Below, one piece after another: positions 3,003 through 3,836 of a DNA stretch of 36,067 nucleotides. Made by a program: the position numbers and the translations under genes. The DNA comes from a virus (Duplodnaviria; Heunggongvirae; Uroviricota; Caudoviricetes), in IMG/VR virus record IMGVR_UViG_2609460210_000005, one strand, 5' to 3'. Below the pieces are notes generated by a model, which was not told where the DNA came from, searched no databases, and worked only from the letters and a program-made list of their open reading frames with translations. How positions within the stretch are numbered: the first letter of the stretch is position 1; each line of letters opens with the position of its first letter.

Positions 3003-3836
3003 TCACCAAACGATGCGCCCATCTGATGTATGTCCTTTGGCTTGTTTTACTATACTGAAATCTACTATTCCATATGGATAAATTTTATTTACTTTAAACA
3101 CAAGATTAGCAACTAAATGCATTCTCGATTTAACTGTTTCTGTGCGCAAAGCGATATTTGAGGCCCCTTTTATTTTAGCGCTAGGATAAATAAGACCATC
3201 AACATCAGGGTATTTATCAAGAAGAAGACGGCAAAAAATTCTTGAGTAAATATAATTTACCTCATGGGCATTGATACTATTAAGCAACTCAGCAGAAAGG
3301 GCATCCATATACAAATATGATAGCAAAGCTCGGATGTCGTCCTTACCAATTCTGCTAATGATGTCGCGAATTTCATTAAACACTTCAATTGAAATTGTAT
3401 TTACACCGTGATACACATTAAAGACCTCACCGATAGCAAAACATCGCATTCCAGACTCTGAATTTTCCGGCATCTTAAAGTGAGCTATGTGAACATAATC
3501 CCCTTCTTTTGCATTAATTTCGGCTAAAGCTGTTCCGATACTATAAGCGCCATAGAAGATAGCTTGTCCATCATCATTCATTCGGCCTATTTTACATTTT
3601 TCTGGTGGAGGGGGATATATCTCACTGATGTTATTATATCCGCATTCATTTGGGCACTTTCGCGCTCTAAAAATTGGTCTGTCATAACCGAACTTGAAAT
3701 TAACACCGCCATATGATTGAAGATACCATCTAAGTAATTTCTCTACTTTCTCTGGCTTTATAGTAGTTAGTAATTCTTTACGAAACAGATCAAGACTATT
3801 TAACTCAATTACCTTTAGCTTATTATTCATGACCAT
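3003..3836 (-). CDS. RES-domain protein (putative NAD+-targeting toxin family), 277 aa, with N-terminal extension; no adjacent Xre/antitoxin gene
   Basis: Motifs GRMNDDGQAIFYGAYSIGTALAEI (G-R-x-N...LY.A.S...AL.E) and DGLIYPSAKIKGASNIAL (G-x-x-YPS...G-x-N) match the RES-domain hallmarks. Confidence 0.6.
   Translation of the reverse strand: MVMNNKLKVIELNSLDLFRKELLTTIKPEKVEKLLRWYLQSYGGVNFKFGYDRPIFRARKCPNECGYNNISEIYPPPPEKCKIGRMNDDGQAIFYGAYSIGTALAEINAKEGDYVHIAHFKMPENSESGMRCFAIGEVFNVYHGVNTISIEVFNEIRDIISRIGKDDIRALLSYLYMDALSAELLNSINAHEVNYIYSRIFCRLLLDKYPDVDGLIYPSAKIKGASNIALRTETVKSRMHLVANLVFKVNKIYPYGIVDFSIVKQAKGHTSDGRIVW

Follow-up and report, generated by a model that had tools for sequence, protein, structure and literature searches.

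Toxins of the RES family break NAD+ down by phosphorolysis. An antitoxin of the COG5642/DUF2384 type accompanies most RES proteins, the canonical toxin measuring ~150-190 aa and the RES domain ~160 aa. Up to 2024, immunity had not been among the functions ascribed to any RES protein. Stand-alone antiphage RES proteins, called aRES, have been described in defense islands, where they have no operon partners; upon infection NAD+ is depleted to yield ADP-ribose 1''-phosphate (ADPR-1''-P), growth is arrested and Escherichia coli is protected (Osterman, ..., Sorek; bioRxiv 2026-01-28, doi 10.64898/2026.01.28.702374). The ADPR-1''-P made by aRES defeats the NARP1 pathway through which phages rebuild NAD+, and phages counter aRES by the Macro phosphatase Adpp, together with NARP1, or by aRad1 inhibitors (doi 10.64898/2026.01.28.702374). 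By definition, aRES are proteins of 300-600 aa with an N-terminal PF18870 (HEPN/RES-NTD1) domain, PF18870 being called by HHsearch (doi 10.64898/2026.01.28.702374). The RES gene analyzed here resides in a stretch of 36,067 nt (IMG/VR virus record IMGVR_UViG_2609460210_000005; hereafter the window), as the passenger of a cassette bounded by inverted repeats within a P2-like prophage.

Among known systems, aRES comes closest. The gene itself has long carried no more than a generic RefSeq annotation (WP_001060550.1, "RES family NAD+ phosphorylase", 275 aa, the entry for the identical gene, with its start at ATG 3830); what is new is a shorter aRES relative, devoid of PF18870, on a cassette of the IS4 type. 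By analogy with aRES, the product is read as a stand-alone RES enzyme that may serve a phage as an infection-triggered, NAD+-depleting exclusion or abortive infection factor, aRES-like but minimal, a reading to which we assign a probability of about 0.5. It is favored because of the aRES precedent, of a core signature shared with a protein combining PF18870 and RES, and of a family member found next to gpQ. As aRES, the window protein is encoded by a single gene without antitoxin operon, features a RES catalytic domain, and is found in Enterobacteria; a location at mobile or defense-type loci may be a further common trait. Its core shares the signature PPPEK..GRMN..G...Y.A..GTALAE with the PF18870 and RES protein, the two being aligned by hhalign at a probability of 97.7% (E=1.7e-12) over aa 52-236, that is, over the core only. 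The family member next to gpQ, 26% identical to the window protein, adjoins this portal gene in a P2-like element, and hence lies at the cos-adjacent hotspot in which P2-like phages keep defense systems (PMC13586616). Unlike aRES, the window protein has a helical hairpin of ~50 aa in place of the PF18870 domain, and its gene resides in a phage genome on an IS4-type cassette, whereas aRES genes reside in chromosomal defense islands.

Domain, fold and partners of the RES protein

Because all homologues in an alignment of 37 sequences begin MDNKLKV..., the ATG at 3830, which has AGGGA 5 nt upstream, is the probable true start of the gene. Both halves of the RES signature reported by the first-pass annotation, which was made from the letters alone, are in place, GRMNDDGQAIFYGAYSIGTALAEI at aa 84-107 and GLIYPSAKIKGASNIAL at aa 214-230, and the profile search that it had recommended returned a significant match to the Pfam RES domain PF08808 (46.7 bits against a gathering cut-off of 23.2; E=4.5e-12; aa 77-232). 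PF08808 is matched also by 64/66 distant relatives (20-39% identity). An AlphaFold2 model built from the 37 homologues has a mean pLDDT of 90.6 and a pTM of 0.87, and comparison of folds assigns it to the RES/ADP-ribosyltransferase (ART) type. Profile, fold and conserved residues all place the protein in the RES domain family.

Residues R57, R59, R85, N87, Y95, E106, S219 and K221 are invariant in the 37-homologue alignment, and N227 is kept in at least 90% of the sequences. Among the 66 distant relatives R85, Y95 and E106 are invariant, and R57, R59, N87, S219 and N227 are found in at least 90%. The conserved residues appear to parallel the NatT active site (R23/R82/Y93/S184/N193), a correspondence drawn from order and spacing and not from structural superposition. 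Pairwise ratios of nonsynonymous to synonymous substitution rates (dN/dS) range from 0.09 to 0.19 against the Enterobacter, Lelliottia and Citrobacter orthologues. The RES fold and the conserved residues are intact, and under purifying selection. Because of the Pfam match, the confident model, the conserved residues and the low dN/dS, the protein is taken as a functional, selected RES enzyme, its activity being predicted.

Searches of the PDB with either the single protein or the family profile matched no solved RES toxin. The kinship to solved RES toxins is for this reason visible by fold only, and the protein represents a divergent branch. A library of viral folds returned a fragment from phage P88_4B11 and remote ART-like proteins, nothing else, and NCBIfam has no specific model for the protein. 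Comparison was made with the toxins of RES-Xre pairs MbcT (6fkg), NatT (8qnl), P. putida Res (6gw6/9r35), VPA0770 (8gug) and ParT (6d0h). In sequence, the window protein detectably matches none of the solved RES toxins; it differs from RES-Xre toxins by ~125 extra structured residues, distributed over an N-terminal hairpin, a helical insert and a C-terminal beta-hairpin. Its gene is borne by phages or other mobile elements, is sporadic, and lacks an antitoxin of the Xre, MbcA or ParS type.

The N-terminal extension had been estimated at ~90 residues, and is actually ~50 aa long. The local alignment to PF08808 starts late, at profile position 18, and the strand holding the first conserved arginines (R57/R59; modeled at aa 55-61) belongs to the core, which aligns with other RES proteins from about residue 52 onwards. 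The structure prediction proposed for this region by the first-pass annotation yields a helical hairpin (aa ~10-50, with helices at aa 12-23 and 28-39) plus a strand, highly conserved and modeled with a pLDDT of 95-97. Further additions, relative to RES toxins of ~150-190 aa, are the helical insert (aa ~145-195) and the C-terminal beta-hairpin (aa ~240-277). A profile search of 1.84 billion cluster representatives retrieved 670 proteins at E<=1e-10, a number that rises to 4,354 at E<=1e-3; among the matches listed, the best ones are mostly 265-330 aa long and mostly aligned end to end. Judged from these alignments, the N-terminal extension forms an integral and conserved element of a large protein family, and no peculiarity of the window gene.

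RES is the only real gene of the cassette, in line with the early description of a gene standing alone between inverted repeats. It is the only ORF (open reading frame) longer than 50 aa, the remaining ones being all <=43 aa long, or located within or antisense to the RES ORF. A missed antitoxin ORF, named by the first-pass annotation as what would refute its reading, was not found. A small upstream ORF of 30 aa with a TTG start (3867-3959) was considered as a candidate antitoxin and rejected, as it overlaps the promoter-like block described below and lacks a start codon in Lelliottia (L014; L numbers denote loci used for comparison). The conserved stretch is kept at the nucleotide level, third codon positions included.

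Partners were also sought in 12 independent contexts of homologues, 26-91% identical to the window protein: E. coli (the window), Enterobacter, Lelliottia, an enterobacterial prophage, Citrobacter, integrative and conjugative elements of E. coli and Salmonella, Aeromonas, Neptunomonas, Buttiauxella, a distant metagenomic member, a 310-aa member in a P2-like element, and one IMG/VR phage contig. None of the 12 features an Xre- or DUF2384-type neighbor, so the absence of an antitoxin partner noticed in the window extends to the homologues, and no neighboring gene is conserved throughout. Neighbors are mutually unrelated, save for DUF2971 proteins found 1-2 genes away from the RES homologue in two distant contexts (L005, 6724-7656; L021, 1909-2709; 26% mutual identity, E=5e-11). 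These two contexts are otherwise unrelated, one being from Citrobacter, the other being that of the distant metagenomic member, in a contig that holds Shedu, ParE and DUF2971 genes. Homologues reside in mobile or variable settings, such as the integrase end of a prophage, integrative and conjugative elements, islands, and P2-like cargo located after ogr (E. coli, Enterobacter).

The gene might be the orphan toxin of a RES-Xre type II pair, the antitoxin having been lost or residing elsewhere, and hence either a decaying remnant or a toxin neutralized in trans. The pairing habit of most RES proteins speaks for this, as do the toxin-antitoxin (TA) pairs made of RES and helix-turn-helix proteins that some phages carry. 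Against it stand the lack of an antitoxin neighbor in 12 contexts from several genera, a length of 275 aa rather than ~150-190 aa, in a large family that shares this full-length architecture (670 representatives at E<=1e-10), and the presence of a promoter-like site and a terminator-like hairpin of its own; decay is contradicted by purifying selection and by the invariant catalytic residues. An orphan origin is accordingly improbable, and by both partner and size the protein is not a RES-Xre TA toxin.

A role like that of NatT, a stress or persistence NADase that would respond to physiological cues and drive lysogens into dormancy independently of phage attack, is given only a small chance: NatT needs the partner NatR, and is encoded by a core-genome gene not associated with phages, whereas the RES gene is sporadic (66/5,426 genomes), resides on mobile elements and has no partner.

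The cassette and its phage carrier

The cassette spans positions 2686-4172 (1,487 bp). Its arms, identified by an inverted-repeat scan and compared by global alignment, are ~130 nt long and near-identical except for a 4-nt insertion. Prophages lacking the element (L002, L003) have an empty site which reads ...AGAGCT GTGAGATAGGG TGCCTTATC..., and fixes the boundaries of the cassette exactly. The ends of the cassette, CAATGCCGTTCAGTTAAGGA and CAATGTAGTTCAGTTAAGGA, feature AATG at positions 2-5 and TTA at positions 14-16, and fit -AATR--------WTW----, the end consensus given for the IS4 subgroup of insertion sequences (IS) in a 2008 review, according to which the direct repeats of the subgroup are 10-13 bp long. 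The 11-bp duplication flanking the cassette falls within this range; IS4 itself makes a 12-bp duplication in K-12. The cassette termini share 18/20 positions with the right inverted repeat that IS4 has in E. coli, TAATGCCGATCAGTTAAGGA. The long inverted repeats, the duplication, the comparison with empty sites and the IS4-subgroup ends all bear out the mobile cassette proposed by the first-pass annotation. Because there is no transposase inside, the element reads as a mobile insertion cassette (MIC) in the sense of MIC231, with ends of the IS4 subgroup.

As MICs (MIC231/IS231 of Bacillus cereus; the MICs of qnrD and qnrS2) and miniature inverted-repeat transposable elements (MITEs), the cassette has inverted repeats of an IS family around a passenger and no transposase, is flanked by a duplication of family-typical length (11 bp against 10-13 bp in the IS4 subgroup), and has a collapsed, MITE-like form of 73 bp. 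It differs from them in the unusual length of the inverted repeats (~130 nt), the internal hairpin, the toxin- or defense-type passenger, and the phage carrier. At the time of the 2008 review, passenger-carrying elements had been reported for the IS231 subgroup only.

The complete cassette was found in 66/5,426 complete E. coli genomes, always at the same single site, and 168 genomes carry the site empty. Full-length IS4 is present in 2,480 of the 5,426 genomes, and a helper transposase is therefore commonly available. The unit formed by the upstream arm and RES has three different outer junctions, in the window, in an Enterobacter P2-like prophage (L012), where it follows ogr directly, and in another phage contig (L038), where it directly follows a 567-aa tail-type gene; the second arm is missing or unseen in L012 and L038. 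No copy of the cassette arms was found in plasmids, and no exact copy of the cassette hairpin in species-representative genomes; an autonomous parent IS that shares the subterminal sequence was not found either. Searching for the terminal 19-mer returned chance-level loci, and small intergenic repeats in one Thiotrichaceae metagenome-assembled genome, with no transposase near. The repeats in this genome (S06.Bin195; L030, 3999; L031, 863; L032, 6996) start with AATGCCATTCAGTTAAGGAATTGAGG, 25/26 identical to the cassette terminus, and diverge thereafter; they could be a MITE family with the same end bound by IS4-type transposases, or a coincidence. Rfam models called nothing in or near the cassette when run on the whole window, and no tRNAs were found.

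The same site is occupied in a metagenomic E. coli contig (OLNN01001643.1; L043, 2968-3040) by a near-perfect palindrome of 73 bp, flanked by the same 11-bp duplications. In it, the two termini of the cassette meet at the internal hairpin GAGGTTCGATAGCTCGAACCTC and the RES gene is lost; the palindrome is best described as a MITE-like collapse product of the cassette.

The window starts with E. coli chromosomal DNA (flk), followed by a P2-like prophage which ends at an integrase gene adjoining pdxB. The order of genes on the minus strand is gpD, ogr, hok (Hok/Gef), RES cassette, Zn-ribbon membrane protein, TagO/VasI-like protein, att end. The G+C content of the RES gene is 36%, that of the window 52%. 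The cargo block from gpD to att accompanies the prophage at other integration sites and on a plasmid, and is found, RES cassette included, between ogr and integrase in the phage record Escherichia virus P88_4B11 (Xuanwuvirus, Peduoviridae). Because the block is present in P88_4B11 with the cassette, the RES gene is cargo of the ogr-to-att region inside a P88-like (Xuanwuvirus, P2-like) phage genome. The cassette had been described as lying next to a prophage end; it lies inside the prophage, between ogr/hok and att, and is packaged in P88_4B11. The RES gene is a "moron" of a P88-like temperate phage, delivered on the 1,487-bp cassette.

The Hok/Gef type I toxin gene directly upstream of the cassette (4246-4386, minus strand) encodes a protein of 46 aa, labeled "MokW-like" in P88_4B11, and is accompanied by a hairpin at 4214-4237. 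This hairpin lies where the hok transcript region ends on its 3' side, and the cassette is inserted ~30 nt past it, so that hok appears intact; Rfam called neither a sok nor a hok RNA at the locus. On the other side of the cassette, the 110-aa product of the gene at 2155-2487 (minus strand) features an N-terminal zinc ribbon and a hydrophobic C-terminal half, and looks membrane-spanning, and that of the gene at 1256-2056 (minus strand) resembles TagO/VasI (TIGR03360, 80.5 bits, below the cut-off of 124). These two genes have a G+C content of 36%, and are found in prophages with or without the RES cassette as well as in a plasmid (L003).

The TagO/VasI-like gene is one of the hints that RES might be a secreted or contact-dependent effector, linked for example to a type VI secretion system; RES domains do occur in polymorphic toxin systems, and an Hcp gene is located 350 nt from the Lelliottia homologue (L014). 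Such a role is nevertheless very improbable. The TagO-like and Zn-ribbon genes sit also at empty sites, and are hence not linked to RES, the Hcp gene in L014 is convergent and does not share an operon with the homologue, and the remaining contexts show no such association. No immunity gene, fusion to PAAR, VgrG or Rhs, or feature of a secretion signal was found.

Sequence conservation extends beyond the RES ORF for ~150 nt upstream and ~45 nt downstream only. The upstream stretch includes a promoter-like block kept in the window, L012, L014 and L015, beyond which the sequences of L014 and L015 are unrelated. The distance from the promoter-like site to the start at 3830 sets the putative 5' untranslated region (UTR) at ~74 nt, for which no consensus RNA structure is predicted. 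A consensus promoter scan did not call TTGAAA-N16-TGtTAGCCT, the hexamers being our own reading. Downstream, the first ~45 nt past the RES stop codon are kept in L012 and L014, and the sequences then diverge. With a promoter-like site in front and a terminator-like hairpin at the stop codon, the gene looks monocistronic. A 10-bp palindrome, signaled by the first-pass annotation ~125 bp upstream of the gene, is indeed present but has neither statistical nor comparative weight. Perfect 10-bp palindromes are 24 in the window, against ~35 expected by chance, and only a part of this one, TTCTAGAA, is kept in L012 and L038, none in L014 and L015. Being no more frequent than chance, and not conserved in L014/L015, it was dropped as a candidate operator. 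The coordinates of all these features are given in Table 1.

Table 1. Position of the RES gene, of the cassette components and of putative regulatory signals in the window.
Feature	Position	Strand	Remarks
Left target-site duplication, 11 bp, GTGAGATAGGG	2675-2685		present once at empty sites L002 and L003, twice here; abuts the cassette
Left terminal inverted repeat, ~130 nt	2686-2815	+	starts CAATGTAGTTCAGTTAAGGAATTGAGG; internal hairpin GAGGTTCGATAGCCCGAACCTC; follows the RES gene
Intrinsic-terminator-like hairpin GTTTGGTGAGCCAAAC followed by TTTTAG	2996-3011	-	terminator scan; overlaps the RES stop codon
RES-domain protein gene	3003-3836	-	277 aa from ATG at 3836; 275 aa from ATG at 3830
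Promoter-like site	3911-3938	-	-35 TTGAAA at 3938-3933, 16-nt spacer, extended -10 TGtTAGCCT at 3919-3911
Palindrome, 10 bp, GTTCTAGAAC	3963-3972		next to the -35, on its upstream side; 127-133 nt ahead of the RES start
Right terminal inverted repeat, ~133 nt, with 4-nt GTTA insertion	4040-4172	-	ends ...CTGAACGGCATTG; upstream of the RES gene
Right target-site duplication, 11 bp, GTGAGATAGGG	4173-4183		comparison with empty sites

Proposed mode of action and points against it

The RES enzyme is expected to cleave NAD+ by phosphorolysis into nicotinamide and ADPR-1''-P, as MbcT, NatT and aRES do. In the lysogen it would be made constitutively at a low level, and be kept inactive without the help of an antitoxin. 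Silencing is likely to be exerted by the family-specific additions to the core, either intramolecularly or through oligomerization, and the N-terminal hairpin, the helical insert and the C-terminal beta-hairpin are the candidate autoinhibitory or sensing parts. Infection by a competing phage would activate the enzyme, NAD+ would collapse, the cell would be arrested, and the invader could not replicate. The outcome would be abortive infection or superinfection exclusion, to the benefit of the prophage. The cassette would be moved in trans by a transposase of the IS4 type. The protein may, in short, work like aRES. The scheme also recalls defenses formed by single SIR2 or TIR proteins (DSR1/DSR2 and others), in which, as proposed here, one polypeptide senses the infection and destroys NAD+; the RES protein differs in its RES/ART fold and in the ADPR-1''-P expected as product, and is 275 aa long, whereas SIR2/TIR proteins have large sensor domains.

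The first-pass annotation had suggested a function in defense or addiction rather than a classical TA pair. The lack of a TA partner and, by analogy, the aRES precedent speak for the former half of this suggestion, while addiction is without support because no antidote was found. As an addiction module, the gene would stabilize cassette or prophage by post-segregational killing, and the neighboring hok is indeed a classic addiction toxin. Yet a labile antidote would be needed, and there is no conserved small ORF or RNA, nor a consensus structure in the 5' UTR; moreover, the cargo is naturally deleted at the same site in the 73-bp remnant, and 168 genomes carry the empty site. The chances of such a module are very slight.

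Several observations weigh against an infection-triggered, aRES-like defense. PF18870 was not matched at E<=1 by the whole protein nor at E<=10 by the isolated N-terminus, and was matched by 0/66 relatives; at 275-277 aa, the protein is also below the 300-aa limit, and consequently falls outside the operational definition of aRES. A PADLOC (2023) scan found no matching model, and the ogr-att region is not among the defense hotspots of P2 in a survey of P2/P4 hotspots (PMC13586616). In P88_4B11 (NC_049391.1; L024, 4007-4833) the RES gene is split into two ORFs of 243 and 579 nt, tblastn matching the protein in two pieces at 99.3% identity, as a result of a frameshift or stop in the isolate, or of a sequencing error. 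At the same site, the 73-bp remnant exists without the RES gene. Because of the split gene and of the remnant, RES is regarded as dispensable. The complete two-armed cassette is found at one site only, and its current mobility is for this reason putative.

Finally, RES enzymes can also be protein ADP-ribosyltransferases, as ParT, and the substrate is therefore not settled by sequence. A ParT-like ADP-ribosyltransferase, or another NAD+-using modifier, might act on a specific host or competitor protein, in the service of lysogenic conversion or of host take-over. This is unlikely, as the invariant residues resemble in pattern those of the NAD+ phosphorylases NatT and MbcT, the closest relatives of known architecture are of the aRES type, and aRES depletes NAD+; in addition, no target can be proposed from the sequence.

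A broader formulation of the infection-triggered defense, extended to the whole family of ~275 aa, is put forward tentatively, at less than even odds. According to it, the family would be a minimal form of aRES devoid of the sensor domain, a single compact enzyme able to detect phage infection and controlled by its own additions without an antitoxin, and would act as a weapon of temperate phages for superinfection exclusion. In E. coli, an IS4-mobilized cassette would have brought the gene into a P88-like phage, and hairpin-mediated collapse to a 73-bp MITE would account for its loss.

Other features of the prophage and meaning of the family

Within window positions 4880-11699, the tail block FI-to-U (6147-11699, plus strand) is inverted relative to D and ogr (4577-6121, minus strand). 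In the Enterobacter prophage L012 the genes have the P2 order FI FII E T U D ogr, all on one strand; the inverted arrangement is found also in P88_4B11 and L002. The gpD gene is truncated in strain Iso00225, where it measures 801 nt, against 1,242 nt in the window. A C4 antisense RNA (75 bits) and an isrK Hfq-binding RNA (64 bits) were called by Rfam side by side on the minus strand (31681-31769 and 31806-31880), in the early region of the prophage, overlapping a RefSeq "ash family" pseudogene. The classical defense hotspot of P2, between the replication gene gpA and the portal gene gpQ (27380-28046), is almost empty, holding one hypothetical gene of 87 aa and a fragment of a parM pseudogene, and the accessory genes of the prophage sit at the ogr-att end instead. 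The window contains 19 isolated N bases (for example at 1202, 1225, 5033, 6653 and 8168), which introduce X residues in gpD, the tail sheath and other proteins; none falls in the RES cassette.

The family of ~275-aa RES proteins lies outside the search criteria used for aRES and lacks the presumed regulatory N-terminal domain, yet is widespread (670 representatives at E<=1e-10). Should the gene not defend, it is merely a RES-family moron, with its role unassigned and already annotated. Should the family defend, the count of NAD+-depleting immune systems would be enlarged, and a minimal protein would become available for asking how a lethal NADase is restrained and triggered without a partner. 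It would also show that temperate phages use NAD+ depletion against rivals. The IS4-type cassette is a concrete route by which a single defense gene may enter phage genomes. If the proposal is true, a defense gene would have spread inside a virus as the passenger of a transposase-less IS derivative, and would be lost from it by hairpin-mediated collapse; the occupied, empty and collapsed (73-bp) alleles at one site provide natural isogenic controls.

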